A stretch of 64,000 nt of DNA from Verrucomicrobiia bacterium (GCA_049968335.1 JBMFQZ010000006.1:78961-142960); one strand, 5' to 3'; positions 5,950 through 48,342 are shown, numbered from the stretch's first letter. The notes: generated by a model not told the origin, from the letters alone. Program-made: numbers and translations.

Positions 5950-7797
5950 ATGGAAGCCGCAAAAAATGCAGTGGAACGAAAAAGTTTAGAACAGCGGGAG
6001 AAGATGAGCGAGATTGAACGGCTCCGCCATTCTGCCGCTCACATTATGGCAGCAGCAGTGTTAAGATTGTGGCCTAATGCCAAATTAGATATTGGTCCGG
6101 CAACAGAAGAGGGGTTTTATTATGATTTTGACCTGCCTGACCATCGGTTCACACCGGATGATTTTCCGAAGATTGAAGAGGAGATGCGCAAAATTGTTAA
6201 GGAGAATCACCGCTTTGAAAAATTTGTCAAGACCCGCGAGGAGGCAAAGGCGCTTCTGGAACAAAAGGGACAGACATATAAGATTGACAGGTTGAACGAT
6301 ATTCCAGAAGGCGAGCCAATCTCATTTTATCAGAGCGGCGAGTTTGTTGACCTTTGCGCCGGACCGCATGTGATGCGAACAGGAAACGTGAAGGCGTTTA
6401 AACTCCTGCGCGTTGCCGCCGCATACTATCGCGGGAACGAAAAAAATCCGCAACTTCAGCGAATTTACGGCACAGCTTTTCCGACAAAGGCTGAACTTGA
6501 AGAATGGCTTAAGGCTCAAGAGGAGGCTAAAAAACGGGACCACCGCAGGATCGGAAAGGAAATGCAGATATTTCTCTTTGACGATGATGTTGGACCTGGG
6601 CTTCCGTTGTGGATGCCTAATGGGGCGGTGATTGCTGAAGAACTCGAAAAACTGGCAAAAGAGACCGAGTTTCTCGCCGGCTATGTTCGCGTTCGCACGC
6701 CGCATCTGGCAAAAGAGTCAATGTATCTTACCAGCGGTCATTTGCCGTATTACGCCGAGAGTATGTTTCCGCCGATGGAGTTGAAGGAATACGATGAAAA
6801 CGGTCAGGTTAAATCGGTTGAAAAATATTATTTAAAAGCGATGAACTGCCCTCATCATCATAAAATATTCGCTGCTGTCCCGCGCAGTTATCGCGACTTG
6901 CCTTTGCGGCTGGCTGAATATGGCACCTGTTATAGATACGAAAAAAGCGGCGAATTAATGGGGCTAATGCGGGTAAGGTCTATGCAGATGAACGACGCCC
7001 ATATTTACTGCACACCGGAGCAATTTGCGGATGAATTCAAGGCGGTAAATGAGATGTATTTGAAATATTTCAAAATTTTCGGGTTTAAGAAATATCTGAT
7101 GCGCTTCAGCACGCACGATCCGTCGCGGTTGGGGCAAAAGTATGTGAATGAACCGGAGCTGTGGCTCAAAACTGAGGAAATGGTGCGAAAGGTTTTGAAC
7201 GATTCTGGCATTGAGTATGTTGAAGTTCCAAATGAAGCCGCGTTTTACGGTCCAAAAATTGATGTTCAAATCTGGAGCATTAGCGGCAGAGAGTTTACTA
7301 TTGCCACAAATCAGGTGGACTTTGCTGTTCCACGCCGATTCGGGCTTGTTTATCGGGACAAAGACAATACTGACAAGACTCCTATTGTAATTCACCGCGC
7401 GCCGCTGGGAACTCACGAACGGTTTATTGGATTTTTGATTGAGCATTACGCCGGCAATTTCCCTCTCTGGCTCGCGCCTGAACAGGTTCGCGTGCTTCCT
7501 GTTACCGAAAACCAGATACAGTATGCCGAAGAGATTGTTAAACAGTTGAGATCAAATCTTGTTCGGGCAACCATTGAATTTAGCAACGATAAGTTGCAGG
7601 GCAGAATATTGCGCGCCGAAGAAGCCCGCGCCGGCATAATGTTAATAGTCGGACAGCGGGAGCAACAGGCAGGCACAGTTGCTGTCAGAATTCATACTAA
7701 AGGCGATCAGGGGGCGCATCCGCTCCCGGTGGTGATTGACACGATTCTGAACGCCATCAAAGAAAGAACGCCGGAAGTGGTTTTGAAAAAGAGTTAA
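5950..7797 (+). CDS. thrS: Threonine--tRNA ligase lacking the N-terminal TGS domain
   Basis: The editing-domain motif RHSAAHIMAAAVLRLWP sits at residues 26-42, followed by DLCAGPHV and the class II core CYRYEKSGELMGLMRVRSMQMNDAHIYC. An in-frame TAA lies 18 nt upstream of the ATG. Confidence 0.9.
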   Translation: MEAAKNAVERKSLEQREKMSEIERLRHSAAHIMAAAVLRLWPNAKLDIGPATEEGFYYDFDLPDHRFTPDDFPKIEEEMRKIVKENHRFEKFVKTREEAKALLEQKGQTYKIDRLNDIPEGEPISFYQSGEFVDLCAGPHVMRTGNVKAFKLLRVAAAYYRGNEKNPQLQRIYGTAFPTKAELEEWLKAQEEAKKRDHRRIGKEMQIFLFDDDVGPGLPLWMPNGAVIAEELEKLAKETEFLAGYVRVRTPHLAKESMYLTSGHLPYYAESMFPPMELKEYDENGQVKSVEKYYLKAMNCPHHHKIFAAVPRSYRDLPLRLAEYGTCYRYEKSGELMGLMRVRSMQMNDAHIYCTPEQFADEFKAVNEMYLKYFKIFGFKKYLMRFSTHDPSRLGQKYVNEPELWLKTEEMVRKVLNDSGIEYVEVPNEAAFYGPKIDVQIWSISGREFTIATNQVDFAVPRRFGLVYRDKDNTDKTPIVIHRAPLGTHERFIGFLIEHYAGNFPLWLAPEQVRVLPVTENQIQYAEEIVKQLRSNLVRATIEFSNDKLQGRILRAEEARAGIMLIVGQREQQAGTVAVRIHTKGDQGAHPLPVVIDTILNAIKERTPEVVLKKS

Positions 7798-19076: not shown

Positions 19077-19324
19077 ACGCCGCTTGTTGATACTTTGTTT
19101 TTTACTCTCTTTGTCAGAACCCATTTCTGACAATTCTCTGAATATCATATAGCAATAGGTATGCCAGTTTGATTTAAAATGCATAAGTTATTTAATATCA
19201 ATATATAACAAAATTAACAATGTCTTTCAATTGTATCATTCTGGGTGTATGTCCCCAAATGATTGGGGAAAATTGACAATTCTTATAGGGGTAAACTTAA
19301 CTGAATCTTGTTGATTAGACGAGG

Positions 19325-34511: not shown

Positions 34512-34677
34512 AGCCTTTAATGCTTTAAAATTAAGCAATAAATACGTACCTGCTGCAAATATGTATTATATATTTAATTTCATCAAAATTCATTCGTCTT
34601 TGTTGACCTGGATTCAGATAAGAAACGGGAATTTATGGATTGAATAAAACATCGCTCTTGTGCAATCTAACGATTGT

Positions 34678-37600
34678 ATGAACATATTCAAAATGAACGG
34701 CAAATTTGCGAAGGTTGTCAATATTGTTGTCTTAAATGCTTTTATTTTTTCTGCATTTTCTGCAATTTCGCAGGAGATAAATAACGGGCTGGTGACAGTC
34801 CGCGCTGTAAAGAAGGGGAATTCATTTTCTGGTTTTGATGTATTAAAAGGGAGCACGAATATAGCGATTATAAGGTTTAGTTCGGAGACGGTTGGTTTGA
34901 CTGTCACAAAATGCAGCACAGTACGGGGTGGAGATGCGATTGAATTTTCAGGCTTTCAGGCGCGCAGCGGAGCAGGTGTTGTATTTGGAAAAGAGGATTT
35001 TGTCCGCGTCAGGCTTATTCGCAACGATCCTTATCCGGAGATAGCGTTTGGCATAACTATAGCGGAGTTTGACAGCGCGAAGTGGCAAACGGTGGTGGGG
35101 AAAGAGCCGTTTCATTTTCTTGCGTTATATTTGAAGGATGCCGAAACGTGGCATCATCGCGGCTGGTTAAACGCAACGCCGCTTGTTGATCCATTTCCAT
35201 TATTGCTTGACCGTCATGCCGGCACGCCAGAAATCTCCGCCTATCATTATAACAGGAACTGGAGTTACACAGTGCCGCTTGGGGCTCATCCGATACCGGT
35301 AATTGGTCTGTGGTCTGCAAGCAAGGCGCATTACGTTGGATATGAATTTCAAACAACCCGTCTTGAAAATAATTCTGAGCGCGACATTGCGACCGGGTAT
35401 CGCTGGATTGGCGATGAGAGCGGAAGTCCTGATTCAAAACAGTTTGTTGCGCTTGTTTATCCCTATGGCGGACAGGGGTATCAACAACTTGTTCTTCCGG
35501 AAACTGGGTCGCGATTAAATTCAAAATGCCGCCTGTTATGGAGTTTAAACCTGCCATCAACTGATGATCCGAATCGTTTTACGTTATCGGTTATCTGGGG
35601 CAAAACGATGGATAAACTGCCGCGGGTTCCGGCGGTGGCGGATGTTGACTGGATACCGGGAGGGATTCGGTTAAAGGATTTTCAAGGTCCGCCGCGCGGC
35701 GGTTTAATTGCCGGTGTTGAGCCGCCGTTTCAGGTTCAGGGAACGAGGTTGATTTCAGGCTGGACCTGGCATAATGAAAGCCCGACTGCCGCCGCAGCAA
35801 AGCAAAAAGATTCACAGAGAATCGCGGCTCTTAAAAACATTGCGTCGGAATTGATGAAATACGCAAAGAGGTTTCAGATCAATGGAGAGGAGTGTCTGTT
35901 CTGGGAAAAACCGCTTGAAGGAGAGTGGACTGAACAATGGGGCGGAAAACCTGTAACGACATTGCACAACGCAAACGGTTTTGCCGCCGCAAGGGTTTTT
36001 CTTGGTTTATACCGGGACGCGGGGATGAAGGAGTATTTGCCTGTAGTTGATGGGGTGTTGAACTGGGCAAAATATATTGAATGGACGCGAAACGAGTTTG
36101 CCGATGTCCCTTCTTCGCCATTTGCGATTGGCGGCACGTTGAGCGCCTCGTTTTGTCTGGAATATTATAAAACATTTAAAGATAGTCCCGACGATGAGCA
36201 TCGCAAACGGGCAAGTCTGGCGCTGGAACTTGCGCGCGTCTTTACCTATAGATATCTGGCAATCTGGCTTTCGGACAACAACCGGTTTGACAATCTTGAT
36301 TCTTCGTTTTTATGGGAGCCGAACAGCGGTAGAGACTGGACTGGTGCTGCCTGCGCAAACGAGGTCTTCTGGAATCTGGACACGCTTGCCCAAACGGCTG
36401 TCCATACCGGCGACCCTATCTTGATGTGGGCGCTGCAGGGCTCGTTAGATAGATGGCATCAACTTTATCAGGATGTTGTTAAAAATAGTCTTTTAGAGTA
36501 TCAAGCGCGAGATATGACAGAGGGTTACGGACTTTATGCCGGGAATGTTTACGGGGTTGGAAAACGCGCGCCATACGGATTTGCTTCGCCGCTTGTGATG
36601 ACCGAGCCGGTTGGCGATTCTTTTATCCGTGTCCTTGCAGGTGAAAAAGCGGCGCTTGCGTTTAAAAAAGGAAAACAGCAGGTCAACATCTCGCAATACA
36701 AATATAAACAGGAGGGGAACTTTGCCTTTACGGTTCAATCTGAACGCGGGGTGTTTGACCTATCTTTGACATCGCCTTATTGCGATATTAGCGAAAAATC
36801 TGTCAGCATTGCGCGCGAGGGGAAAAAGATTGTTTTGCAGCCGGGCTCTGATTTTATAAGACCGCCGCAAGCGTTATGGTCTTTGTATTTAAAGAACGTA
36901 AGAAATGGCGACAGAATTATAGTTGGTGAACCGGATGAGACGGCGCCGTCATTGCCAACAGAACCGCCGCTTGCCTATTCAAGCGCTCAAAAACAACCGT
37001 TGTCTAATTATGAAACCGTAAATGGTTTTGGACTGGTTCAACTTCCTTATGACAGCGCTCCTGATTTTAGCTGGGAGAATCCGCAGGGCTGGGCTGGAAT
37101 GCCGCGCGGCAGAATCTGGGTCTTTGGAGTGCCATTTAATATTGAATATTCAAATGACCGTTGTGTGTTGAGCCGTCCCGCGAAGCTGTCGCGTCAGATT
37201 AAGAATGCCGATTTTGTTTATCTATTATACAGCGAGGGCGAAGGCGAGGTTCCGTCGTTGGTTTATTCTGATGGCGCAAAGGAACTGGTTGACACTTCAA
37301 GCGAGGCAATTGCATTCAAGGCTCACCCGCCGATTTTTAAAGGCAGACTGTTTATCGGGAAGGTCGCGGTTAAAAAAGGCAAGTCAATCCAGTCTATTGA
37401 TCCGGCTAAGCGAATGGTCTGGGCTATGACGGTTCAAACATTATCCGACATACCGGCGGAAGATGCGGCACGAGTTAACCTTGCTTTAACCAAAGCGGCT
37501 GAAGAATGGAAAATCCAGAGGGCGCAGGAGTTGATTATGAGCGAACTTTCTGAAAAGGTTAAAACCGTGTCAGAAGGTAAAATAGCGATTCTTCCGCCAA

Positions 37601-38256
37601 GTCCGGGCGGCGCCGCATTTACATTTTTGCAGAAGATTGGTCTGGTTGAGAAGTCTATGGTTCTGAACAACCAGAGGCTTATTGACGGTTCAGTTTTCAA
37701 TCCGCAAAAGGTTTCTGCGGCAGTCTATCTTGATGGCGAGGATTATGTTCATACGGTTAGAAATACCGCCGATGGGGCGAACGCCGTTGAACAATTTGTT
37801 AAAGGAGGCGGCACGCTTGTTCTGCTTGCCTCGCAGCCATGGCCGATGTTTTACGCCACAGGCGGCGGCGGCAGGCGGAGCGAGGCGCTCACCGGGAAAC
37901 TTGGACTGTCGTTGTCTATGGCAGTTGAAGGTTTGCCATCAGAAAAATTGACAATCAAGATTAATACCCAGCAAAATATTATCAGATGCAAAAACGCGCA
38001 ATTCGGGTATCCAGAGGGGGACGGGAGGTTGCGGGCGATTTTAAGAAACCGAATACCAAAGGAGGCAAAATATACTCCGATTGCAACGGTGGTTGGAGAG
38101 TCGGGCAAGGATTACGGCGATGCCGCAGGTTTAATTGAATTTCCTAACGGTGGCAGGGTTCTATATATTGCCAGCGTGTTGCAACTTGACCCGATTAACG
38201 GTTTTGAAATTCGCCGCAGCGTAGCGGAATATTTGATAAAACTGAGCGGTAAATAA
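34678..38256 (+). CDS. Large secreted hypothetical protein (~1190 aa)
   Basis: This is an uninterrupted ORF with a signal peptide (MNGKFAKVVNIVVLNAFIFSAFSAISQE). Its last 76 codons are duplicated at 45835-46064. Confidence 0.75.
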   Translation: MNIFKMNGKFAKVVNIVVLNAFIFSAFSAISQEINNGLVTVRAVKKGNSFSGFDVLKGSTNIAIIRFSSETVGLTVTKCSTVRGGDAIEFSGFQARSGAGVVFGKEDFVRVRLIRNDPYPEIAFGITIAEFDSAKWQTVVGKEPFHFLALYLKDAETWHHRGWLNATPLVDPFPLLLDRHAGTPEISAYHYNRNWSYTVPLGAHPIPVIGLWSASKAHYVGYEFQTTRLENNSERDIATGYRWIGDESGSPDSKQFVALVYPYGGQGYQQLVLPETGSRLNSKCRLLWSLNLPSTDDPNRFTLSVIWGKTMDKLPRVPAVADVDWIPGGIRLKDFQGPPRGGLIAGVEPPFQVQGTRLISGWTWHNESPTAAAAKQKDSQRIAALKNIASELMKYAKRFQINGEECLFWEKPLEGEWTEQWGGKPVTTLHNANGFAAARVFLGLYRDAGMKEYLPVVDGVLNWAKYIEWTRNEFADVPSSPFAIGGTLSASFCLEYYKTFKDSPDDEHRKRASLALELARVFTYRYLAIWLSDNNRFDNLDSSFLWEPNSGRDWTGAACANEVFWNLDTLAQTAVHTGDPILMWALQGSLDRWHQLYQDVVKNSLLEYQARDMTEGYGLYAGNVYGVGKRAPYGFASPLVMTEPVGDSFIRVLAGEKAALAFKKGKQQVNISQYKYKQEGNFAFTVQSERGVFDLSLTSPYCDISEKSVSIAREGKKIVLQPGSDFIRPPQALWSLYLKNVRNGDRIIVGEPDETAPSLPTEPPLAYSSAQKQPLSNYETVNGFGLVQLPYDSAPDFSWENPQGWAGMPRGRIWVFGVPFNIEYSNDRCVLSRPAKLSRQIKNADFVYLLYSEGEGEVPSLVYSDGAKELVDTSSEAIAFKAHPPIFKGRLFIGKVAVKKGKSIQSIDPAKRMVWAMTVQTLSDIPAEDAARVNLALTKAAEEWKIQRAQELIMSELSEKVKTVSEGKIAILPPSPGGAAFTFLQKIGLVEKSMVLNNQRLIDGSVFNPQKVSAAVYLDGEDYVHTVRNTADGANAVEQFVKGGGTLVLLASQPWPMFYATGGGGRRSEALTGKLGLSLSMAVEGLPSEKLTIKINTQQNIIRCKNAQFGYPEGDGRLRAILRNRIPKEAKYTPIATVVGESGKDYGDAAGLIEFPNGGRVLYIASVLQLDPINGFEIRRSVAEYLIKLSGK

Positions 38257-38322
38257 TTTATTGATTAATCCAGTGGCGTTCTTTTGTCGCGGTAAAAAGA
38301 CGCGCTGCCGTCGAGCATCACC
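38027..38322 (+). repeat. Left copy of the ~296-bp direct repeat bracketing the insertion
   Basis: Positions 38027-38219 are identical to 45835-46027. Similarity with scattered substitutions continues to ~38322/46130. Confidence 0.95.
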
Positions 38323-38363
38323 GCTACGGCTCGATGGAAAAGTTTTGGGAAACGAGCCTGCAT
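38265..38363 (-). pseudogene. Chimeric 32-codon ORF: junction ATG fused to a decayed copy of the prepilin-like gene tail
   Basis: The hand translation is [32 protein letters not shown]. The last 18 residues match the C-terminus of the 46073 gene ([17 protein letters not shown]). Confidence 0.6.
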
Positions 38364-38450
38364 TTTTCACACACTCCGCGCCTTTTCCAGCCGCGCCCGC
38401 ACCAGCCCTACCACCGCCTCATACACCGCCTCCCGCTCACCTGGCGTCAA
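38361..38450 (-). repeat. Copy 3 of the methyltransferase gene 3' end (mosaic fragment)
   Basis: It encodes LTPGEREAVYEAVVGLVRARLEKARSV*. Positions 38361-38406 are identical to 39082-39127, and 38410-38438 are identical to 40984-41012. Confidence 0.9.
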
Positions 38451-38485
38451 ATGTAAAGTTGAAACGGAGGGATACCTCGAGAATT

Positions 38486-39091
38486 TCATTTTCGGAAATA
38501 GGCATCAAGGGACTCACGCAGACTTCGCAGAGCATCGATGGCGTTGTCGTAGTGACTGAGCTTATATTTGCCATATTCCCATTCCTCGAGTAGAAACAGA
38601 TGTTCGCGATTGCGCCAGTCCCATAAATCGTCAAGGGCCTTTTTTAAATCATCGGAAATCATACCGTTTTTGACCATAGCGGCAGTTCGCTGTTTATAAC
38701 CCGTGTTCTTCCCGGAGATATTTCGTGCTACATCTTTGGTGATACTCTCACAGAGAGTACCGACAAGGCAAACACCCTCTTTGATAATCATTTCACGGGC
38801 AGTCCCCTTTAAGTCAATTCGATTCAACAACCATCGGTAAACATCACTAAGGATTAGTGCGTAGGAGATATTGCGTTGCAAGTTCTTGTCGTGGATAAAC
38901 CAATACTGATCCCGAAAGAACTTGGCCTTTCGCAAATATCCGCGAGGAAAACGGATTTTCAGAGGTCGATCACCCTCTCTTCCTAGAAGGTTTTCAATCT
39001 CTTGCAAATCGTTTCCGATCCGCTTAACCAGTGATTCGATTGACTTTTCCATGACGGTTTCGCACCACATCAGTTGTTCATCATTTTTCAC
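38486..39091 (-). CDS. Orphan helical protein, function unknown (possible HEPN-like effector)
   Basis: This 201-codon ORF ends the island operon. The GTG at 39091 overlaps the TGA of repeat copy 2, and alternative ATGs lie at 39070 and 39052. The WDWRNREHLF string is HEPN-like but is one residue short of Rx4-6H. Confidence 0.6.
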   Translation of the reverse strand: MKNDEQLMWCETVMEKSIESLVKRIGNDLQEIENLLGREGDRPLKIRFPRGYLRKAKFFRDQYWFIHDKNLQRNISYALILSDVYRWLLNRIDLKGTAREMIIKEGVCLVGTLCESITKDVARNISGKNTGYKQRTAAMVKNGMISDDLKKALDDLWDWRNREHLFLLEEWEYGKYKLSHYDNAIDALRSLRESLDAYFRK

Positions 39092-39205
39092 ACACTCCGC
39101 GCCTTTTCCAGCCGCGCCCGCACCAGCGTCACCACTGCCTCGTACAGTGCCTCACGTTGCCCTGGCCGCCGTTCGTACCACAGTGAAACACCAGACGTTC
39201 GAAGC
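39082..39205 (-). repeat. Copy 2 of the methyltransferase gene 3' end (diverged fragment)
   Basis: It encodes ...PGQREALYEAVVTLVRARLEKARSV* with no upstream ORF body. It lies between the OLD-type gene and the 201-aa ORF. Confidence 0.85.
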
Positions 39206-39262
39206 GAGGGTGCCCGGAAGCATTGCCACCTAGCAAGAGAGAGTGAAGTTAGGGATATCATT

Positions 39263-40930
39263 CTAACTTGCCAAGGCCTTCAGTAAGGCGGACACCTTGC
39301 TTTTGAAGTCCTTGATCTTTTCGTCTGCGACCTTACCCTGTTGTACGGCCAAGAGAACCTCGGCTGCTTTGCGCCATCGTTCCCCACTGGTTTGAATTCC
39401 GAGAAAATCCTCCAAGTTGTTTGGCAGCTTGTAGACATCCTTTGTGCAATCGTTCTTGGCCTTCTGAATGAGATTGTTAAGCTTGTCCTGCTTTTCTTTT
39501 TCGCTACCGGTCTTGTTCGCATCCTTGTCATGCAAGACAGCATGATCAATTCGGAACTCGCCCAAAAGGTTCATGAAGCGGTGGATGTTGTATTTTCCGA
39601 GTGTTTCTAAAACAAACACCCCATTGGCGTTAGAAGAAAGTTGCCCGGTCTTGAGCAGGTAGTTGATCAACACCTGTTCCGAAAGCCCTTCAACGATGAG
39701 AACGGCGTTTGCGAAGAAGAGGCTGCTTCGTTCGGGATTCAGCCACAGAAAATGGCGCACTGCTTCCAGTTCCGCCGAACCCGCCTGCACGCCGAGAATT
39801 TCCGCGATTTGCTGGTTGTCCTCAAAGATTTCCTTCAAACGGACCTTTTTGATTTGGGCAACTTCGGTCTTGCCGGCTACTCGCCGCACACGAACCAAAT
39901 CCGCGAGGTCATCGGTGTTGTAGCTGACGAACTGGGGCGAGTGCGAAGCGGCAATGACCTGACGGCCCGGTTTAGCTGCGAGTTGGCGCAAACTGGTGTC
40001 GAGCACGTCTTGTTGCGGCGGATGCAGGAACGCCTCGGGCTCTTCAAACAGTAAAAGCTCCATTTCCGGCGAGAACTCCTTTTTCTCCGACTTGGGCTTT
40101 GACGCGGTGTAGCCCGCGGCGATCCGAATCAGCGTGAAGATCAGATGCCGCTGCAAGCCATGACCAAAGGCGTCAGGGCTCATCTCGGTATTCAAGGCGC
40201 TGTCGGTCAGGGTGTAGCGAATCAGGTTCTTGATGATGTCATCAACTTGTGGCGGATTGATGCCTAGATTAAAGGAGACGCCCCACTCTTTGATTTGATC
40301 AGTGATTTTCGCCTCGAGGTCCGAAAGCGAGCGTTTGTCAGGCGTCTCCTCGTTTTTTATGTTCCAGCTAAACTTAGCGAAGTCTTCGGTCAGGGCGGTA
40401 AAGGCGTTACTCGAAGTGATGACAGGCTTTAGGATGTCGTTAATTAGATCGCGCAGCGCGCTCGGCCCTGTCAGTTTGGTGTGCTCTTCCAATCGGCTGA
40501 CAGCCGGGATGTAAATCACATTGCCAAGTTTGCCCTGAGCCACGTTTTTCCAGCCGTAGAACAAATTCTGCGACAAGCTGCCATTTTCATAACCGAAAAA
40601 ACCGGCCTTCGCTTTATCGGACGGCCACAGCCACTTGCGAACGCGGCAACGGTTTTGGCCGATCAGGTATTCTTTTTTTATGTCTGCCGCCTCTTCTTGA
40701 GACAATTCGTATTCGAGTTCCACCCAGCTTTCCTGGTCATTGGTTTGGAACTTCGGGAAATCCCGGTCTTGGTCGAACTTCAGATCTTTCTCGTAAACGG
40801 TTCGTAGAGCATCGAGGACGTTGCTCTTGCCGGAATTGTTCGGCCCGATAAGCAGCGAATAGTCGCCGAAGCGGATTGTCTGCTCAGCAATCGAACGATA
40901 GTTGTGGATTTTCAGCTCTCTGATTTTCAT
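39263..40930 (-). CDS. OLD-family ATP-dependent nuclease (ABC-type ATPase + Toprim)
   Basis: It has MKIRELKIHNYRSI, Walker A GPNNSGKSN, Walker B LLLFEEPEAFLHP and ASHSP. Toprim follows with AVLIVEGLSEQVLI and LHDKD. A GGAG lies upstream of the ATG at 40930, 10 nt after the methyltransferase stop. Confidence 0.85.
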   Translation of the reverse strand: MKIRELKIHNYRSIAEQTIRFGDYSLLIGPNNSGKSNVLDALRTVYEKDLKFDQDRDFPKFQTNDQESWVELEYELSQEEAADIKKEYLIGQNRCRVRKWLWPSDKAKAGFFGYENGSLSQNLFYGWKNVAQGKLGNVIYIPAVSRLEEHTKLTGPSALRDLINDILKPVITSSNAFTALTEDFAKFSWNIKNEETPDKRSLSDLEAKITDQIKEWGVSFNLGINPPQVDDIIKNLIRYTLTDSALNTEMSPDAFGHGLQRHLIFTLIRIAAGYTASKPKSEKKEFSPEMELLLFEEPEAFLHPPQQDVLDTSLRQLAAKPGRQVIAASHSPQFVSYNTDDLADLVRVRRVAGKTEVAQIKKVRLKEIFEDNQQIAEILGVQAGSAELEAVRHFLWLNPERSSLFFANAVLIVEGLSEQVLINYLLKTGQLSSNANGVFVLETLGKYNIHRFMNLLGEFRIDHAVLHDKDANKTGSEKEKQDKLNNLIQKAKNDCTKDVYKLPNNLEDFLGIQTSGERWRKAAEVLLAVQQGKVADEKIKDFKSKVSALLKALAS

Positions 40931-40940
40931 GTTTTGCTCC

Positions 40941-41075
40941 TCACACGCTTTGGGCTTTTTCGAGGCGGGCGCGGACCAGCCCGACCACCGCCTCATACAC
41001 CGCCTCCCGCTCCCCGGCCGTCAAGCCCAACACATCAAACACCACTTCGTCCAAGGCGAAGCGGTCAGGTGATGC
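40941..41075 (-). repeat. Copy 1 (functional) of the triplicated methyltransferase 3' end
   Basis: It encodes ...FDVLGLTAGEREAVYEAVVGLVRARLEKAQSV* and is the reference for the fragments at 39082-39205 and 38361-38450. Confidence 0.9.
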
Positions 41076-44000
41076 TTGTCGCACTCGGTCTAAAGAAGCG
41101 GCAGAAGGGATGATATGTTCGTAGGGGTGGTTCACATGCGAACAGTGCAGCTCTTTGCACAGCGGAAATCCCAGCTCTTCAAAAACTGTGCGAACAACGC
41201 GCTTGGATAAAGCTTCAAACGCATCAATTAGGCGACTTATTGTTTGCAGGGTGAGATCGGTTGGGTCAATAACCGGGAATAGACCCACATCCGGGCCATT
41301 CACTGAAACTGCGCCAAGCCCCCAAGGCACGTTCCCGATGAGCTCATTCAATCCCGCCGCCACCGTTGAGTTGCAGAAAGCACCGATCACGGCCTTGTGT
41401 TCTTTTGTGTGGAAAATGATTTTATAGAACTTTTGCCCATAAACCCTGCCCAACACGATAGGAACAAAAAAACGAGCGCCTACCATTCGTGGGTATAGCA
41501 AATCACCGAGTTGGCGTGAGTTGCCGGTTGACTTAACTCCGAAGAACACCACGCCAGGGCTATTCTCTGTAAGGCGCATGGTCGAAAGCGAATCAATGCT
41601 GTCAACGAAAGGCACGGAGGGGAATCTCGGCCCGATATTGTTGCCGTGGATGTACCCCTCGATTCTCGCAAATAATCGCAAGGGTTTTAATTTTGGCAAC
41701 ACGTGCGTCATCAGGATGTCCGGAGCGCGCAGGTATTTGCCGCCCCATTTGTTGGCTTCGTAACGAGCGGTTTTGATGAACGGGGTGCGCGGTTTCTTGC
41801 CGGCCGACGCGGGTTCGTCGTCGTCTTCCTCGCGGGCGAGGCCTTCCTCGAACAGGTCGCGTTGGGGTCGGACGCAGATTCGCCAGCGGTCGGTGCTCTG
41901 GCGTTCGGCGGCGGACTCCAGCCTCTTGAAGGTGGCGGCGTCGAGCACGTCCTCGAACGGGACTTTGAACATAACAAAGCGGGCGGTCTGGTCGAGGCCG
42001 CTCTCGCGGCGGTCGTCGGGCGGTGCAAGCAGGGCGATGATCGTGTTGACATCAGCCTGGGCAAAGGAGCGTTTCCGTTCGTTGTCGAGGATGAACTTGA
42101 CGTGGCTGTGTTTGAGGAGGAACTCCTGCAGGTCTGCGCCGTAGCCGACATCGAGCCAGGAGTTGGAGGTGATGAAGCAGAAGCTTCCGCGCTCAGTCAG
42201 CAACGCCAGCCCGTGCAGGTAGAAGTAGATGTAGAGGTCGCTCTGACCGTCCAGTTTTCGATAATTGGCAGAGCTCGGCTTATACCGGAAAAACTTGGGC
42301 CACGCAGCAGCAACGGACTGAGCAAGTTTTGCTTTATAATCCGCCTTTTGTTCCTTCCATCGCGGGGCGTCTTCGCCGCCGTAGTCCTCAGGATTTTTGT
42401 CCGGCGGGGCGATCTTCTCTTTTCGGACATAGGGCGGGTTGCCGATGACGATGTCGAAGCCGGCCTTGTCGCCCTCGAAGATTTCCACAAAGGCGATGTC
42501 CCAGACGAACGGGACTTGTTGGGTGGTGCGCAGCGCCTGCAGGGCTTGTTCGATGCGGTTGAGTTCGGCTTGGCGCTCGGCGCGTTCGGCGCGCCATCCT
42601 TCTTCGAGGCGGAGACGTTCCTGTTTGGCCTGGCCGGGGGCGATGCCGGCCAGTTCGCCCTGTTCCACGCGCGATTCGATTTGATGGGTGAGCGCGGCGA
42701 TGGATTTCTGGAGGGCGAGGCGTTTGTGCGTGAGGATGTCGTGGAAGATGTCGAGTTCTTCCTTTTTGAGGTCGGCTTCGCGGAGGCCGGATTCGCCTTG
42801 GTAGAAGCGGAGTTTTTTGCCTTTGAGCTGGGTGAGTCGGCCTTTGAGTGAGGCAGGAATGTCGAGGTGGTCGCGGTGGAGACCGAGGTTGATGCCGCCG
42901 ATTTCCTGCACGAGGCTGTCGCCGCAGCGGACTTTGAAGGAGAGATTGGGCAGGAGCGGGCGAAATTTTAGTTCCGCAGCTTGGAGCTCGGTTTCTACGA
43001 CCAGTTGCAGCCAGAGGCGCAGTTCGGTGACGTGGATTGCCCAGTCCATCACGTCCACGCCGTAGAGTTGTTCGCCGATAATGCGGCGGCGGCGTTCGTA
43101 GGGGGTTTCTTCGAGGCCGAGTTGGGCGTTGGCGCGGGCTTGGAGGTCGTCGAGCACCAGCAACATGCCGACGAGGAACGAGCCGGAGCCGCAAGCGGGG
43201 TCGCAGACGGTGGTTTCGCGCAGGAGACGGTTGAGGTCGGGCCAGAGGTTTTGGGCAGCGAGCGCGCGGTCGGCGGCTTCTTTGTTGGCGGGGTCGTAAG
43301 CGAAGACGGCGTCGTAGAGCAGCGGTTTTTTGTCCTGGCCAAGCCGGTTGGCGAGGGTGTCGGTAAGGCTGAGGCGGCACATCAGGTCAATTTCGACGCG
43401 CGGGGTGTAGAAGATGCCGGCCGAGCCGCGCAGGTCGTCTTCGGTGAGTCCCTCGAAGGTGATGTTGACGAGGGATTCATAGACTTTGCCGATCATTTCG
43501 GGGTCAACGGCGACCTCGATGTCCAGCGGGGTAGATTCGGCGATGGTGAAGTTGTAGCGTTCGAGGAAGCCGGGGCTGCTTCCGTCAAAGGAATCGAAGA
43601 GGGTGGTAAAAAACTCGTCCGGCAGTTTCGCGTCGTAGGCGTCGTCGAGTTTGTTTTGGGTGAACAAGCCGCCGTTGAGAAACGGGGCTTGAGCGAGGGC
43701 GTGGCGGATGGGGTCGGGGAAATGGCGGTGTCCGCCGTGGAACTTGTTGTTGAACGCCTCGAAGAACAGGACGGAGAGCCAGCGGTCGAAAAAGGTGTCC
43801 TTGGGCTGGTCTGAGTTTTTGTAGGCGCGCCAGAATTCGGCGATGAAGTTCGGATTGTTGACGAGCCAGCGCTTGCGCTGGATGAAGTAAAGGAACATCA
43901 GGCGGTTGAGCAGTTGCAGGGCGTAATCGTGCGCCCAGATTTTGTCGCGGGAGGCATTGGTCAGGTGGGCTTGTAGGTTGGCAAAGACCTTCTTGTAGTC

Positions 44001-44537
44001 GTCGAAGAACCGTTTGGTGACTGCTTCGACATCGAAGGCTCGGTTGAGTTTGTCGGTTAGGGTGGTGATGAGTGGTTCGCCTTGTTCAAGTTCATCGAGG
44101 CTGAAGGCGAGTTCGCCCAGTCGCTCGATAGTGGTGCGGGCGGGAGAGCCGACCTCGTAGGGGAGGGTGCGGAGTTCGATCTTTTCGTCGGGCCGCTGAC
44201 GCGCCCAGGTGAAGGCGGCTTGTCGCTGGTCGGAGGTCACATAGCAGAGGAGATGTTCGGCATGGAGGGGTTTGAGGGCACGCTGAACCACGCGGCGGGC
44301 TGTGACACCGGGAAATTTCTTCTCTGGCCAATCTATGCGATATACCGGAAGACCCGAAAGTTGTGCCACCGGATGGAGGGTGAGGAGCCCGCTTACCGGC
44401 GTTCCGACTTCGAGAGTTCGCGACGTCATACCCCGCGGCGCACCCCAGTTGAGGGTCTGGCAGAAAAGCTCCCCCAGGTTTTCCGCCAAATTGCCGCCGG
44501 TCAATTGGGCTTCGATTTGTTGAAGAATCGTGTTCAT
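40941..44537 (-). CDS. Eco57I/PglX-like gamma-class N6-adenine DNA methyltransferase with a C-terminal specificity region (1198 aa)
   Basis: Motifs are GIFYTPR, motif I VCDPACGSGSFLVGML, LYGVDVMDWAIHVTELRLWL, motif IV FDIVIGNPPYVRKE and KWGGKYLRAPDI. The N-terminal region has LLNRLMFLYFIQRKRWL...FLNGGLF. I saw no clear PD-(D/E)xK motif. Confidence 0.85.
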   Translation of the reverse strand: MNTILQQIEAQLTGGNLAENLGELFCQTLNWGAPRGMTSRTLEVGTPVSGLLTLHPVAQLSGLPVYRIDWPEKKFPGVTARRVVQRALKPLHAEHLLCYVTSDQRQAAFTWARQRPDEKIELRTLPYEVGSPARTTIERLGELAFSLDELEQGEPLITTLTDKLNRAFDVEAVTKRFFDDYKKVFANLQAHLTNASRDKIWAHDYALQLLNRLMFLYFIQRKRWLVNNPNFIAEFWRAYKNSDQPKDTFFDRWLSVLFFEAFNNKFHGGHRHFPDPIRHALAQAPFLNGGLFTQNKLDDAYDAKLPDEFFTTLFDSFDGSSPGFLERYNFTIAESTPLDIEVAVDPEMIGKVYESLVNITFEGLTEDDLRGSAGIFYTPRVEIDLMCRLSLTDTLANRLGQDKKPLLYDAVFAYDPANKEAADRALAAQNLWPDLNRLLRETTVCDPACGSGSFLVGMLLVLDDLQARANAQLGLEETPYERRRRIIGEQLYGVDVMDWAIHVTELRLWLQLVVETELQAAELKFRPLLPNLSFKVRCGDSLVQEIGGINLGLHRDHLDIPASLKGRLTQLKGKKLRFYQGESGLREADLKKEELDIFHDILTHKRLALQKSIAALTHQIESRVEQGELAGIAPGQAKQERLRLEEGWRAERAERQAELNRIEQALQALRTTQQVPFVWDIAFVEIFEGDKAGFDIVIGNPPYVRKEKIAPPDKNPEDYGGEDAPRWKEQKADYKAKLAQSVAAAWPKFFRYKPSSANYRKLDGQSDLYIYFYLHGLALLTERGSFCFITSNSWLDVGYGADLQEFLLKHSHVKFILDNERKRSFAQADVNTIIALLAPPDDRRESGLDQTARFVMFKVPFEDVLDAATFKRLESAAERQSTDRWRICVRPQRDLFEEGLAREEDDDEPASAGKKPRTPFIKTARYEANKWGGKYLRAPDILMTHVLPKLKPLRLFARIEGYIHGNNIGPRFPSVPFVDSIDSLSTMRLTENSPGVVFFGVKSTGNSRQLGDLLYPRMVGARFFVPIVLGRVYGQKFYKIIFHTKEHKAVIGAFCNSTVAAGLNELIGNVPWGLGAVSVNGPDVGLFPVIDPTDLTLQTISRLIDAFEALSKRVVRTVFEELGFPLCKELHCSHVNHPYEHIIPSAASLDRVRQASPDRFALDEVVFDVLGLTAGEREAVYEAVVGLVRARLEKAQSV

Positions 44538-45271
44538 GGCCGTTCCTCAGTCATTGCTGTGGACGAAAAACTCGAAGATGCCGCCACTAATCCCATTGAG
44601 CAAATGATACGGGGTTCGGAGCGACTGGTATCGTCTTCGTCTGTCACTTCACAGAGGTTTTCATCTATTGCCCGGCGCAATACAAGTTCAAGCAGCGCTT
44701 CGTCGGTGATGCCCAGGCGCATCTGCCTGTTGACGGCATCTTGCGCGGCGCGCTTGAGCGGGTATCGCCAGATCAGGTTGAGCACAGAGTCGATCTGTTT
44801 CAAGGTTTCTGGGGTGAAGAGCGTGGGGTTAACCTGAAACCGCTCGCGGTAGCGTTTGAGACGATCGTAGAGTTTCCGGCGCATGCTTCGGAGCGAGCCT
44901 AGCTGGCCGCCTAAGGCAGTCTGCTCCTCGGTGGCAATTTCTACGCAACGGGCGACAAGGTTGTGATGGTTCTCTGCCCGCGGCAGCGGCGGGGTGTTCG
45001 GGGCGCACGCGGCGGCGCGGAAGATGGCGGATATAAACTTGGAAACCAGGTTACCCCGCTCATCCACTCGCACAAGCGCAACGGCGCCGTCTGGGTAGCG
45101 CAAGTAAGTAAGCACCACGGGCGGGTTGTTGACGTGCTCCTTGTCCCGATGATCGTAGGATTCGGTCGGGCGCTTATTCTGATTGGTTTGCGTTTTTCTC
45201 TTGCGTGCAGTCAATTCACACCACCCGCTCCTTGTTGGCGTAAACAAGTTCGTATTCCTTCTTGGCGTCAA
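44534..45271 (-). CDS. Hypothetical protein translationally coupled to the methyltransferase (start uncertain)
   Basis: The G+C-rich ORF stops in an ATGA overlap with the methyltransferase start (44534-44537). Its first ~19 codons overlap a 48-codon ORF in another frame. A TTG at 45214 sits 1 nt after that ORF's TGA. Confidence 0.55.
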   Translation of the reverse strand: MTPRRNTNLFTPTRSGWCELTARKRKTQTNQNKRPTESYDHRDKEHVNNPPVVLTYLRYPDGAVALVRVDERGNLVSKFISAIFRAAACAPNTPPLPRAENHHNLVARCVEIATEEQTALGGQLGSLRSMRRKLYDRLKRYRERFQVNPTLFTPETLKQIDSVLNLIWRYPLKRAAQDAVNRQMRLGITDEALLELVLRRAIDENLCEVTDEDDTSRSEPRIICSMGLVAASSSFSSTAMTEERP

Positions 45272-45362
45272 AGAGGATCACCTTGGAGTCCTCCGGTAAG
45301 GGCTTGCCTTCCCTGAGGAGACTTACAATACGTTCAATTTCTTGCTCTGAAAGTTTACGCAT
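45216..45362 (-). CDS. 48-aa ORF resembling the extreme N-terminus of Mod-type adenine methyltransferases (possible gene remnant)
   Basis: The hand translation is MRKLSEQEIERIVSLLREGKPLPEDSKVILFDAKKEYELVYANKERVV*. The LL..GK.LP......LF...KEYELVYAGKE leader is remembered from type III-like Mod proteins. It is absent from the supplied track because it is under 60 aa. Confidence 0.4.
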   Translation of the reverse strand: MRKLSEQEIERIVSLLREGKPLPEDSKVILFDAKKEYELVYANKERVV

Positions 45363-45402
45363 TTCAATTACCTCGCTTTTCCTTTCTTGCCTGTGTTCAT
45401 TC

Positions 45403-45519
45403 CTAATCCTGGATGATGGACACGATAGAGGCGTTCTGGGTCTGCTTCTGAATTTCCAGGGCTGTCTCCTTCAGGAAGAAATGCTGCTCCTCGGTAATCT
45501 CAGTGGTTGTCTTTCTCAT
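45403..45519 (-). CDS. Small (38 aa) ribbon-helix-helix-like protein, putative operon regulator
   Basis: The sequence is MRKTTTEITEEQHFFLKETALEIQKQTQNASIVSIIQD. A GGGAG lies 9 nt upstream of the ATG at 45519. It is the first ORF of the island operon, and the fold assignment is tentative. Confidence 0.35.
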   Translation of the reverse strand: MRKTTTEITEEQHFFLKETALEIQKQTQNASIVSIIQD

Positions 45520-45834
45520 AATCGTTTTACTCCCGGTTTTTAAAGCACGGTTTCTCGGTCTAACTATATCGTTATAATTTTGAATATAGCCACATAAAGT
45601 CAAGGTGAATTTTGCCGCCTCTCTCACCTTTTGTCGATACCCTTAATCTCGCCTATTAGTAGCGGGGCAATGTCTCTGTCTCCGTTCCTGCCAAGCGAAT
45701 TCTCCGGGCTGGGCGGCTCGGATCAAAGCCCTTATATCTACTTTGGAGGCGCAAGGACTTTTTATTTCTACGAGGAGACATTCTCCGTTTGCTTTCCGAT
45801 TATCTTCCGTAGTGGAACCACTTGAGTGGCGCAC

Positions 45835-46064
45835 GGTTGCGGGCGATTTTAAGAAACCGAATACCAAAGGAGGCAAAATATACTCCGATTGCAACGGTGG
45901 TTGGAGAGTCGGGCAAGGATTACGGCGATGCCGCAGGTTTAATTGAATTTCCTAACGGTGGCAGGGTTCTATATATTGCCAGCGTGTTGCAACTTGACCC
46001 GATTAACGGTTTTGAAATTCGCCGCAGTATAGCGGAATATCTGATAAAACTGAGCGGTAAATAA
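45835..46064 (+). pseudogene. Headless duplicate of the last 76 codons of the 34678..38256 gene
   Basis: RLRAILRNRIPKEAKYTPIATVVGESGKDYGDAAGLIEFPNGGRVLYIASVLQLDPINGFEIRRSIAEYLIKLSGK* differs from the intact gene end by one residue (V to I). The ORF-track entry 45822..46064 only adds 4 unrelated codons. Confidence 0.9.
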
Positions 46065-46130
46065 TTTATTGATTAATCCATTGGCGTTCTTTTGTCGCGG
46101 TAGAAATTTGCGCTGCCGTCCAGCATCGTT
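45835..46130 (+). repeat. Right copy of the ~296-bp direct repeat bracketing the insertion
   Basis: See 38027-38322; the offset is 7808 bp. Confidence 0.95.
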
Positions 46131-46786
46131 CTATTTCTGCCGCCCGTATGCGGAGTTCTGCCGCGAATATTCTGCGGCAAAGTTGCGATTGTTGATGGAA
46201 AATAGACATCTACTGTAAGTTCAACTTCCGATGCAGAGGCTGGCGGCGGCGCGTTCGGGTTATTTGCCAGCCTGAGCGAGGCTACACAATCCTCTATTGT
46301 GCGTCCCCAGAAGTTGTCTGGTGGCACTGGGTCATCTTTCCTATCAAACCGCCACATCCAGTATCTTACCATGACGGATTTTGGACTATTGTCGCCAATG
46401 TCGGCTTCCTGAGAGGTTTGGATTATTGAAGATAGACCTTTTTTCTCAACTGCAGGACAGTTCCATATATTTGATTGATTGATGTAGTGTCGCAGAACTA
46501 CCGCAGCCCAGCCGGCGCGCGGATCGCTTTGGGGCCAGGTTGTCCATGGTTTATATCCGCCAGGAAGGCTCATTTTTAAATCGCGTCTATCAGGAAACCT
46601 GCCTTGATTCTCATCCAGATACATAAACAAAGCGCTTGACTGTTGTTTGAGATTTGAAAGACAGGAAATTCTATATGCCGCGTTTTTTGACCTTATTACC
46701 GCAGGCAACAAAATGGATGCAAGGATTCCAATTATCCCGATTACGACGAGCAATTCAATTAAGGTAAAACCGCTCCTTAATTGCAT
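46073..46786 (-). CDS. Prepilin-type N-terminal cleavage/methylation domain protein (DUF1559-like, H-X9-DG tail)
   Basis: It has [25 protein letters not shown] after the ATG at 46786, and a C-terminal [13 protein letters not shown] (H-X9-DG). Confidence 0.85.
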
Positions 46787-46920
46787 ATGAGAAAAAACAG
46801 AATAGAAGCAGTTGGGGCGCATCAATTTATTACGAGTATAACGCAATCCGGATGAACAGAGACTTGTGATATTCATCCGCTTGCTTGAAAAAGCAACTTC
46901 ATCTATAAATATTTTGATTT

Positions 46921-48342
46921 TCAATCTGCCACTTCTAATTTAATTATTCTGTCTGGATTATTCATAGCAAGATAGAGATTGCCGTCTGGAGCGGTCACTA
47001 CAGAGCGAATTCTGCCGATTCCTTTAAATAAGATTTCTGAATGCGCTACGCGATGTGCCTCAATTTCTAATCTCCATAATTCCTCTTTTGCCAGTGAGGC
47101 AACAAAGAGATTGTTTTTCCATTTTGGAAACCTGTAGCCTCTGTAAAAGCCGATGCCGCAAACCGCAATTGACGGCGTCCAGTAAAATACTGGTTGTTCA
47201 AGACCTTCTTTATGGGTTAAATGAGTGATTGGGGAACCGTCGTAATTCATTCCATAAGTAATAATAGGCCAGCCGTAATTTTTGCCTTTTTCAATTAAAT
47301 TAAGTTCATCGCCGCCGCGCGGCCCGTGTTCTGTCTCCCACAGTTCGCCGGTCAGCGGGTTAAAATCAAGACCTTGCGGATTTCTATGTCCGTAGCTCCA
47401 GATTGATGGTATTGCGTTAGGAACATTTACAAATGGATTGTCCGGGGGCACTCTGCCGTCATCAAACAGTCGATGCACTTTGCCGTTCGGTCTCGTTATG
47501 TCTTGCGCATGCTGCATAGTGCCGCGTTCGCCGATTGAAAAGAAAACGTGACCATTATTGTCAAACACGATCCGCGAACCAAAGTGAATTCCGCCGGGAC
47601 GGTAAAATTCTGGCGATGCTCTAAAAATTGTTTGTTCATCTGTCCATTTGCCATCTTTAATATGACCGCGAACAATTACAGTCAGTCCGACGTTGTTTCC
47701 AAGATTATTCGTCCCGCGTTCAGAATATGAGAGGTAGACCCAACGGTTTGTTCTATAACCTGGGTGAAGCGCAACATCCATTAGACCACCCTGCCCTTCG
47801 GCGCGAACTTTCGGGGTGTTTTCAACCGGCGCCGAGATATTACCGTTTTTGTCAACAATTCGCAGCCGTCCGGCAAGTTCAGTTACAAGCATTTTATTAT
47901 CTTCATCTGGAAGAAAGGCGATTGCCCACGGGGTGGCAATGCCCTCGCATACTGTCCTTATCCTAAAATTGTGTTTTTCACTCTTAACGACCTGCTCTGC
48001 GGCTGGTTTGGGCGGTGGAGATTTTTTTAAAGCGGCTTGTGTCTCTTTTTCCCTTATGTAGATAACCATAGCGCGTATTTCCGATTCGCTAAGGGCGTTT
48101 TTCATCGGCGGCATTCCCTCTTCTTCTTTCCCGTCGCGGATAATTTTTGCAATATCTTCATCGCTTGAGCCATATTTCCATTTTCCGTCTATCAGGCTTT
48201 CTCCGGCGCCTCCCTCAAGATTTGCTCCGTGACAGCTGGCGCAATTGTCGGCATAGACGCGGGCGATGTCGCGGGCGGAAGCGCTGGTTGCCAGCGCGGT
48301 TGCGCAAAGAACTATTGCTATGTTTGTTCTGTTGAGAATCAT
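46921..48342 (-). CDS. PQQ-dependent sugar dehydrogenase (beta-propeller) fused to an N-terminal cytochrome c domain
   Basis: It has a signal peptide, CASCHG plus a distal Met (GMPPM), and soluble glucose/sorbosone dehydrogenase-like strings ([32 protein letters not shown]). Confidence 0.8.

Follow-up and report, generated by a model that had tools for sequence, protein, structure and literature searches.

Defense genes are nested within Hma, BREX, DISARM, and type I restriction-modification (RM) systems (Payne et al. 2024, 10.1101/2024.01.29.577857). In that paper, ABC ATPase-Toprim proteins are prominent among the genes embedded in Hma, the significance and cause of embedding are left open, and the word "recombination" is not used. 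A second study describes OLD/Toprim modules as backup effectors in at least 1242 taxa, beside BREX or BREX-related systems, and notes that type 2 BREX-related systems carry HKD-Snf2 helicase-nucleases (Rakesh & Krishnan 2026, PMC12839542). Both papers suggest that such genes serve as a backup against anti-restriction factors (10.1101/2024.01.29.577857; PMC12839542). Class 1 OLDs are described in a review as single genes that are not near other candidate defense genes (PMC10568477). Here, we analyze a locus in a 64-kb stretch of DNA from a Verrucomicrobiia metagenome-assembled genome (the window, with positions counted from its first letter). The same proteins are catalogued on a 190,593-bp contig of this genome, and a look-up of P0092, a second paralogue on that contig, returned nothing. 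In this locus, the gene for a PglX-like N6-adenine methyltransferase is followed by the gene for an OLD-family ATPase-Toprim nuclease (OLD). The original prediction, made from the sequence, had proposed that the two proteins form a restriction-modification-like pair. Our preferred reading, to which we give a probability of about 0.7, is that the locus is an acquired, decayed two-gene restriction-like island with embedded accessory cassettes and that OLD is not a methylation-sensitive restriction subunit.

The core of the island consists of three elements:

40941-44537, minus strand: intact PglX-like (Eco57I-family) N6-adenine methyltransferase of 1198 amino acids (aa), assigned by Pfam, PADLOC, alignment, and fold search.
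39263-40930, minus strand: intact OLD-family ABC ATPase-Toprim nuclease of 555 aa, a putative accessory cassette, assigned by Pfam, PADLOC, and alignment with 6P74.
44585-45130, minus strand: 3' fragment of a helicase-nuclease gene, inside a 245-aa open reading frame (ORF) at 44534-45271 and corresponding to approximately residues 957-1136 of a 1153-aa protein from the related locus L001.

The head-to-tail chain of minus-strand genes described in the original prediction is present, with the 245-aa ORF at 44534-45271, the 1198-aa ORF at 40941-44537, and OLD at 39263-40930. ORF calls in relatives are mechanical. At maximal extension, the 245-aa ORF begins with TTG; OLD uses the ATG at 40930, within a maximal ORF that extends to 40996. 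The stop codon of the 245-aa ORF and the methyltransferase start codon overlap as ATGA (44534-44537), and the methyltransferase-OLD junction reads TGA-GGAGCAAAAC-ATG, both as claimed. The translations contain every motif that had been listed: VCDPACGSGSFLVGML, IGNPPYVRKE, GIFYTPR, and KWGGKYLRAP in the methyltransferase and GPNNSGKSN, LLLFEEPEAFLHP, ASHSP, LIVEGLSEQV, and LHDKD in OLD. Pfam agrees with both protein identifications (Eco57I and MmeI_Mtase for the first; AAA_15 and OLD-like_TOPRIM for the second). Three features had been overlooked, which are that the 245-aa ORF is a gene fragment, that the methyltransferase 3' end occurs three times, and that 293-nucleotide (nt) direct repeats surround the island.

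The 245-aa ORF is a truncated helicase-nuclease gene, because residues ~50-237 align solely with the last ~180 residues (957-1136) of a PLD(HKD)-SNF2 helicase-nuclease. This stub is 73% identical to the protein of L001, 71% to that of L006, and 59% to that of L012 (L-numbers denote the related loci that we compared, mostly metagenomic contigs with truncated flanks). There was no further homology to the rest of the helicase-nuclease anywhere in the 64-kb window, and the nuclease and motor domains are gone. L001, a 471-kb contig, encodes a 1153-aa PLDc_2-SNF2-Helicase_C protein, then a 1204-aa Eco57I-type methyltransferase, and after a 10-nt spacer, an OLD with 71% identity to that of the window.

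We scanned species-representative genomes and obtained 62 loci related to the methyltransferase, from many phyla. A PLD/HKD-SNF2 homologue was found in 41 of them, and most of the others are short or end near the gene. Therefore, the methyltransferase has a usual partner. In close relatives, the helicase-nuclease gene lies directly upstream of the methyltransferase gene. In a divergent branch, it lies downstream, with zero to four variable genes in between (HD, MNT/HepT, DUF3644, DUF3800, Mrr_N, Schlafen, and AAA_15/AAA_21). The top PADLOC model for the partner is "HKD+Snf2" (C3a139), with DrmD, DrmC, BrxH, and HmaA weaker. Our literature search for the label C3a139 returned nothing beyond a survey of CRISPR type III accessory genes. 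Neither the methyltransferase nor the partner passes an NCBIfam cut-off. This appears to be a widespread two-gene PLD-SNF2 plus PglX-like methyltransferase system that passes no curated family model. A full-length adjacent helicase-nuclease is present in the relatives and absent from the window, and we regard the window as a decayed member of this putative system. The earlier statement that none of the known partners is present was right for BREX, Gabija, retrons, and PARIS, none of whose partners is in the island (the ten flanking genes also have no relevant PADLOC match). It was wrong for the methyltransferase, whose usual helicase-nuclease is here a stub.

Two small features of related loci were also noted. 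L081 retains, at 6528-6668, 47 residues from the N terminus of a PLD-SNF2 helicase-nuclease, and this remnant is directly upstream of the gene for an OLD homologue with 45% identity, another decayed junction between the two gene families. In L001 (2424-2570), a 48-aa ORF upstream of the helicase-nuclease gene ends in ...EAIYKILREFGYEH. By eye, this end resembles a type I hsd C terminus and, if so, would be another 3'-end remnant.

The methyltransferase matches Pfam Eco57I (1e-29) as well as MmeI_Mtase and has motif I (DPACGSGSF) and motif IV (NPPY). An alignment of 34 homologues revealed a conserved N-terminal domain (aa 1-160) followed by a highly conserved core that extends to aa ~944, with a helical region preceding the methyltransferase domain. 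After this comes a hypervariable region (aa ~945-1157; window 41067-41705) that is not alignable even among close homologues. The protein ends with a highly conserved helix of ~40 residues, PDRRALD.VVFDVLGLTAGEREAVYEAVV.LVRARLEKA.SV, to which the 3' segment at 40935-41019 corresponds. The hypervariable region is presumably the target recognition region. Its GC content at third codon positions (GC3) is 0.54, compared with 0.76 in the methyltransferase core, and this odd composition, together with its failure to align, points to exchange of a specificity module by recombination.

No nuclease motif had been recognized in the methyltransferase by the original prediction, and there is no conserved D...(D/E)xK across the 34 aligned homologues. 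L29 and R81 of the N-terminal domain are invariant, and E94 and E121 are nearly so. By our reading of an AlphaFold model, the order of N-terminal strands and helices is compatible with a restriction-endonuclease-like fold that has no conserved catalytic residues. The top fold matches are to PglX/BrxX (8Q56, 8C45, and 9EWZ), over the full length at ~12% identity, followed by BpuSI, a type IIG enzyme. PADLOC IIG models give partial matches only (175 bits, aa 166-544). A type IIG enzyme with its own nuclease was rejected on the alignment, which has no conserved catalytic set, and on the structure model. "PglX-like" is a fair label for the architecture, and the evidence does not place the protein within BREX or type IIG.

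We compared the methyltransferase and its usual partner with described systems. Type 2 BREX-related systems (MANTIS/Gao_RL and Hma; PMC12839542; 10.64898/2026.09.23.753747; PMC11232893) also combine an N6-adenine methyltransferase with a Swi2/Snf2 helicase-nuclease, and their N-terminal HKD nuclease is like that of the L001-type partner (PLDc_2, SNF2, and Helicase_C). However, their DUF499 ATPase and DUF3780 protein were seen neither in the window nor beside the L001 pair. The PADLOC HmaA model matches the helicase core of the partner only (1e-23). The pair also resembles a DrmC-DrmD fusion plus a DrmMI-like enzyme of class 1 DISARM. The partner matches DrmD (1e-35), the downstream helicase-nuclease homologues match DrmC (2e-9), and the methyltransferase matches DrmMI (1e-19). 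However, the core proteins DrmA and DrmB (DUF1998) are absent from the window and from L001, and the NCBIfam DrmD score is 140 bits against a cut-off of 610. Like BREX PglX/BrxX, the methyltransferase has ~1200 aa, no nuclease active site, a C-terminal recognition region, and a full-length fold match, but PglZ, BrxC, BrxA, BrxB, and BrxL are absent from the island and its flanks, and the NCBIfam BREX-1 PglX score is 41 bits against a cut-off of 500.

The Pfam matches of OLD are AAA_15 (2e-30) and OLD-like_TOPRIM (4e-15). Its top PADLOC match is the single-gene model "Old" (2.6e-61, residues 1-519), and GajA models score lower. The closest solved relative is the class 1 OLD of Thermus scotoductus (6P74), with which EEPE.(Y/F)LHP, (S/T)HSP, (L/I)VEG, and HD(E/K)D align (covering the Walker B, H-loop region, Toprim Glu, and DxD). 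OLD therefore has the family's N-terminal ABC ATPase joined to a C-terminal Toprim domain with the catalytic Glu and DxD, and it looks catalytically intact. Like P2 Old and 6P74, it is a single ATPase-Toprim polypeptide with the catalytic motifs and with no GajB, retron, or split AriA-AriB. The other OLD classes differ. The UvrD/PcrA/Rep-like helicase GajB, which is adjacent in Gabija (class 2), is absent from the island. For retrons (class 3), there is no reverse-transcriptase-like ORF in the island, in a test that did not include a noncoding RNA search, and the retron Eco8 effector model matches the OLD N terminus only (55 bits against a cut-off of 250). PARIS (class 4) has its ATPase and Toprim domains split, whereas OLD of the window is one fused protein. 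PrrC-EcoprrI and PARIS are alike in having an ABC-ATPase-based nuclease beside a restriction system, fired by anti-restriction factors according to 10.1101/2024.01.29.577857, and prrC is embedded in type I hsdMSR, resembling the hsdS-OLD-hsdR order of some OLD relatives. However, PrrC acts as an anticodon nuclease, AriB is a tRNA-cleaving protein, and these effector domains or split architectures are unlike OLD of the window.

The named-system searches (PADLOC, Pfam, and NCBIfam) returned only the single-gene "Old" model and partial IIG, DrmMI, and PglX similarity, together with MAD2 and MAD3 (MADS) matches that are weak and partial. The embedding of such genes, OLD/Toprim modules included, is itself published (10.1101/2024.01.29.577857; PMC12839542). 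Like the embedded-gene systems in those papers, the window has co-oriented accessory genes inside or directly behind methyltransferase-based core genes, and ABC ATPase-Toprim proteins rank among the most frequent of these. Here, OLD and a second gene, orf201, are co-oriented behind the methyltransferase gene, and members of either family are also found elsewhere, type I operons included. The difference is in the host, a bare and decayed PLD/HKD-SNF2 plus PglX-like pair outside the range of systems that those papers cover.

The locus also has three co-oriented copies of the terminal ~85 nt of the methyltransferase gene, at 40935-41019 (the real end), 39082-39166, and 38361-38445. We refer to these sequences as C copies. 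The two additional copies and the gene between them are as follows:

39082-39166, minus strand: second copy of the 3' end, a remnant between OLD and orf201 with 87% and 78% identity to the other copies; a different allele.
38361-38445, minus strand: third copy of the 3' end ("C element"), a remnant outside any long ORF, with codons ...GEREAVYEAVVGLVRARLEKARSV plus a stop.
38486-39091, minus strand: orf201, a conserved protein with homologues of ~193 aa; a putative accessory cassette.

Copies 2 and 3 share an identical 39-nt core, which had zero matches in shuffled sequence. The third copy is chimeric: its first 29 nt are shared with the real gene end, and the 45 nt at its close are exactly those of copy 2. 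This suggests recombination or gene conversion between copies. The same arrangement was found in another Verrucomicrobiia assembly, the 7.9-kb contig L004, in which a C-OLD-C block has 83% DNA identity to window positions 41054-39088. There is no full methyltransferase gene on this contig (L004:1-7871). On it, Mrr_N, AAA_21, DUF3800, OLD, and DUF4258 genes are separated by four to five C copies and by five partial 3'-end copies from a second methyltransferase family. Additional C copies, always co-oriented, are present in L001, L004, L008, L012 (five extra), L013, L030, and L036. The region L012:13600-17600 has six 3'-end copies, five of which are trailed by a perfect REP-like palindrome, GGGCACGGCATGCCGTGCCC, that occurs eight times in 24 kb of L012 against zero expected. 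The L012 array terminates in a RAYT (REP-associated tyrosine transposase)/IS200-like Y1 transposase gene. In L001, a RAYT homologue lies between C copies (NCBIfam REP-transposase, 4e-17, which is under the model cut-off). Similarly, repeats of an hsd-gene 3' end surround an MNT-HepT pair in the decayed type I locus L148.

RAYT-like genes were also seen behind the methyltransferase gene in L001 and L041 (two copies) and in a fused protein, P0032. RAYT/REP is a possible driver of the arrays, which it accompanies in L012 and L001 but not in the window or L004. An integron-type array was rejected. There is no integrase in the island, L001, L004, or L012, and the repeated sequences are not attC-like palindromes but the 3' ends of coding sequences. 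An ORF of ~70 aa that looks hydrophobic recurs near methyltransferase loci (L001:11765-11983, L004:80-283, L011:14964-15170 and 19087-19278, and L015:14999-15157); in L001, it sits between OLD and the next C copy.

A tentative extension of our preferred reading is that restriction and methyltransferase genes supply portable homology arms in the form of their conserved 3' ends, which would make an integrase-free, integron-like cassette array behind these genes. We consider this extension possible but clearly less probable than its failure. OLD, orf201, Mrr_N, DUF3800, DUF4258/DUF2283, MNT-HepT, and RAYT genes would then each carry a partial 3' end of the upstream gene, and the cassettes would be inserted, stacked, and exchanged by homology-facilitated or homologous recombination, perhaps helped by REP/RAYT in some genomes. 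In a stronger version, OLD cassettes would be selected there as guards of the restriction system. If true, this would be a concrete mechanism for the embedding of defense genes in restriction-type operons. Cassettes bounded by repeated methyltransferase 3' ends are described in neither 10.1101/2024.01.29.577857 nor PMC12839542, as far as their available parts go. These repeat-bounded and sometimes chimeric cassettes are the only part of the locus that we did not find described. They are possibly new and may hint at the embedding mechanism that the literature leaves open, as its footprint.

We also surveyed OLD relatives of 39-82% identity in 80 metagenomic loci (L068-L147). HsdS was the immediate upstream gene in 17 of 43 cases, frequently overlapping by 4 nt, and HsdR was downstream in 7 of 30. 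Relatives at 39-50% identity typically lie between a type I hsdS gene, with a 4-nt overlap, and hsdR. The OLDs of L068, L069, and L070 (71-81% identical) sit behind a different Eco57I-type protein of ~1100 aa, which matches the type IIG model end to end (1060 bits for L068 and 1004 bits for L070). Apart from L118, which is treated below, the surveyed OLD genes are in complete type I operons, behind type IIG enzymes, or in unrelated contexts. On these neighborhoods, the OLD clade appears to be an accessory gene that is often lodged in several kinds of restriction operon, with no fixed methyltransferase partner. This differs from the published picture of class 1. No fixed partner was found. The clade often shares an operon with type I and type IIG genes, which contradicts the description of class 1 as isolated (PMC10568477). 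It also suggests triggers that could be tested, namely anti-restriction proteins.

In one lineage, an OLD with 80% identity lies behind a type IIG enzyme and is itself followed by a conserved 384-aa gene in L005, L068, and apparently L069 (L005:1844-4653 and L068:6001-7155), and L005 adds a 552-aa gene next. Neither has a recognized domain, except for a weak mad8-like match on the 552-aa protein. OLD and these two genes may form a larger operon.

Our preferred reading can now be stated more fully. Positions 38320-45834 would be a horizontally acquired mosaic island that holds the remains of a two-gene ATP-dependent restriction-modification-like system. When intact, the PglX-like methyltransferase would read a DNA site and mark self DNA, and the translocating PLD/HKD-SNF2 helicase-nuclease would cut unmarked DNA, by analogy with type I, type III, ISP, DISARM, and BREX-related enzymes. 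The helicase-nuclease gene has lost its first ~950 codons here, so that restriction is probably dead, and the methyltransferase survives as an orphan. The slot behind its stop codon might be a hotspot for accessory defense genes. OLD and orf201 would be two such cassettes, co-oriented and probably co-transcribed, and the partial methyltransferase 3' end behind each would be a scar of recombination at conserved sequence. OLD most likely works on its own as an ATP-dependent Toprim nuclease of the class 1 type. Its habitual place in restriction operons hints that it may be a guard or a second line of defense, which phage cues such as RecBCD inhibitors or anti-restriction factors might fire, as in the cases of P2 Old, PARIS with Ocr, and PrrC-EcoprrI. 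The gene identities, the truncation, the repeats, the mosaic composition, and the spread across other genomes are observed; the enzymatic activities, the trigger, co-transcription, and the route of recombination are inferred.

Several points weigh against this reading. A 3'-end duplicate is kept in only 3 of 40 OLD loci of other operons, so the scar is no universal signature. The guard or backup role is drawn by analogy only, and OLD might be purely independent. The methyltransferase-OLD junction, with its 10-nt spacer, is kept in two lineages (the window and L001), which could reflect functional coupling. The AlphaFold model of the methyltransferase is moderate (mean pLDDT 69, pTM 0.46) and confident for the N-terminal ~260 residues only. 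Finally, the source is metagenome assembled, and boundaries built from repeats carry some risk of misassembly or strain mixing.

An unlikely alternative is pure co-location, in which OLD and orf201 would be independent single-gene defense or selfish cassettes in a "genomic sink" by a dying restriction locus, functionally unrelated to the methyltransferase and to restriction. The sink idea is discussed in 10.1101/2024.01.29.577857. Many OLD homologues do not have a restriction gene as immediate neighbor, orf201 homologues also occur alone (L152), and the genes in the downstream slot are very diverse (HD, MNT/HepT, DUF3644, DUF3800, Mrr_N, and Schlafen). However, the OLD clade is directly behind HsdS or a large methyltransferase in 17 + 3 + 3 of 43 cases, often with 4-nt overlaps, although these counts stand without a matched background or control set and the enrichment was not formally tested. 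The association also spans three kinds of restriction system. This points to selection, for functional backup or for co-expression, more than to neutral landing.

We consider it very unlikely that the methyltransferase and OLD are a self-sufficient two-component restriction-modification-like system in which OLD replaces the HsdR/Res/PD-ExK module, as the original prediction had it. The two genes are tightly packed, and the 10-nt spacer with its GGAG is conserved in L001. The methyltransferase has no conserved nuclease motif, it and OLD are both intact in the window beside a defunct helicase-nuclease, and OLD is also found behind other large methyltransferase proteins with 4-nt overlaps. Even so, the check for co-occurrence in other genomes came out against the idea. 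Beyond the window, the methyltransferase gene is followed by a close OLD only in L001-L003, which encode identical proteins, probably represent one organism, and have the same pair beside an intact helicase-nuclease. Among the 62 methyltransferase loci, 38 have an intact gene and readable downstream sequence, and none of these 38 has a close OLD downstream. A distant OLD-like gene was found in L021 and L050, both of which keep the helicase. From the other side, none of the 80 OLD loci contains a close relative of the window methyltransferase family. L118 alone has a distant version of the helicase, methyltransferase, and OLD arrangement, and the helicase is present there too. Both surveys therefore led us to reject a conserved methyltransferase-OLD pairing. 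OLD relatives also occur inside complete type I operons and beside a protein that matches the type IIG model end to end, and the methyltransferase 3'-end scars that flank OLD in the window point to its later insertion. Had OLD proved to be the nuclease of a new restriction-modification architecture, the pair would have formed a new class of system. What the evidence favors has already been described in outline, namely accessory nucleases housed within methylation-based defense operons.

The island is bounded by two direct repeats, and a leader precedes its genes:

38027-38319, strand not assigned: left 293-nt direct repeat, 97% identical to 45835-46127.
45835-46127, strand not assigned: right 293-nt direct repeat, the other bound of the island.
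45131-45834, minus strand: island leader, GC 0.47 and host-like, with small ORFs at 45216-45362 and 45403-45519 and a promoter-like site at 45603-45574.

Two convergent host genes have their 3' ends duplicated in the repeats, which have 7.5 kb between them (38320-45834). The left repeat contains the true 3' end of the plus-strand host gene at 34660-38256 and a duplicated 3' piece of the minus-strand host gene at 46073-46924. The mismatches between the repeats, at eight positions, bunch in the last ~100 nt. We found no integrase or transposase inside the island. Its composition is mosaic. In addition to the values for the methyltransferase core and recognition region given above, GC3 is 0.67 in the helicase stub, 0.65 in OLD, 0.49 in orf201, and 0.43 in the leader (45131-45834), and it is 0.45 for the host (whole window). 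This fits stepwise assembly of the island from different sources. That a high-GC segment from another organism or strain was stitched in by the assembler between near-identical 293-nt repeats is scarcely credible: the source is metagenome assembled, GC steps from ~0.45 to 0.58-0.60, and the repeats do bound the segment, but both repeat copies are host sequence with eight differing positions, as expected of a real duplication, the outermost parts of the island (orf201 and the leader) are host-like in GC, and the C-OLD-C structure was found independently in the L004 assembly.

The orf201 gene probably starts at an ATG near 39070, judging from the length of its homologues. It has no Pfam, PADLOC, or NCBIfam match, and none of its 72 homologues has a family-spanning Pfam domain. 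Its homologues (L148, L150, and L152) close a type I hsdR-hsdM-hsdS operon, overlapping it by 4 nt, belong to a decayed type I locus of Pyrinomonas, or stand alone. From these contexts, orf201 looks like another accessory gene tied to restriction systems and is a candidate defense gene.

The promoter-like site in the leader is a consensus match only, and the promoter and terminator scans performed no better than chance. The leader was considered as the original 5' end of the helicase operon, and this was rejected because it has no similarity to helicase loci. Its ORF at 45216-45362 (MRKLSEQEIERIVSLLREGKPLPEDSKVILFDAKKEYELVYANKERVV) is followed by a frame at 45110-45223 (…ESYDHRDKEHVNNPPVV), and a stretch of 38 aa has a weak match in L092/L093, upstream of OLD. 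These two frames may be a 5' remnant of another restriction-system gene that was fused to the helicase stub. Finally, the host gene at 34660-38256 also encodes exactly 1198 aa. It has no Pfam match, and the agreement in length with the methyltransferase is coincidental.

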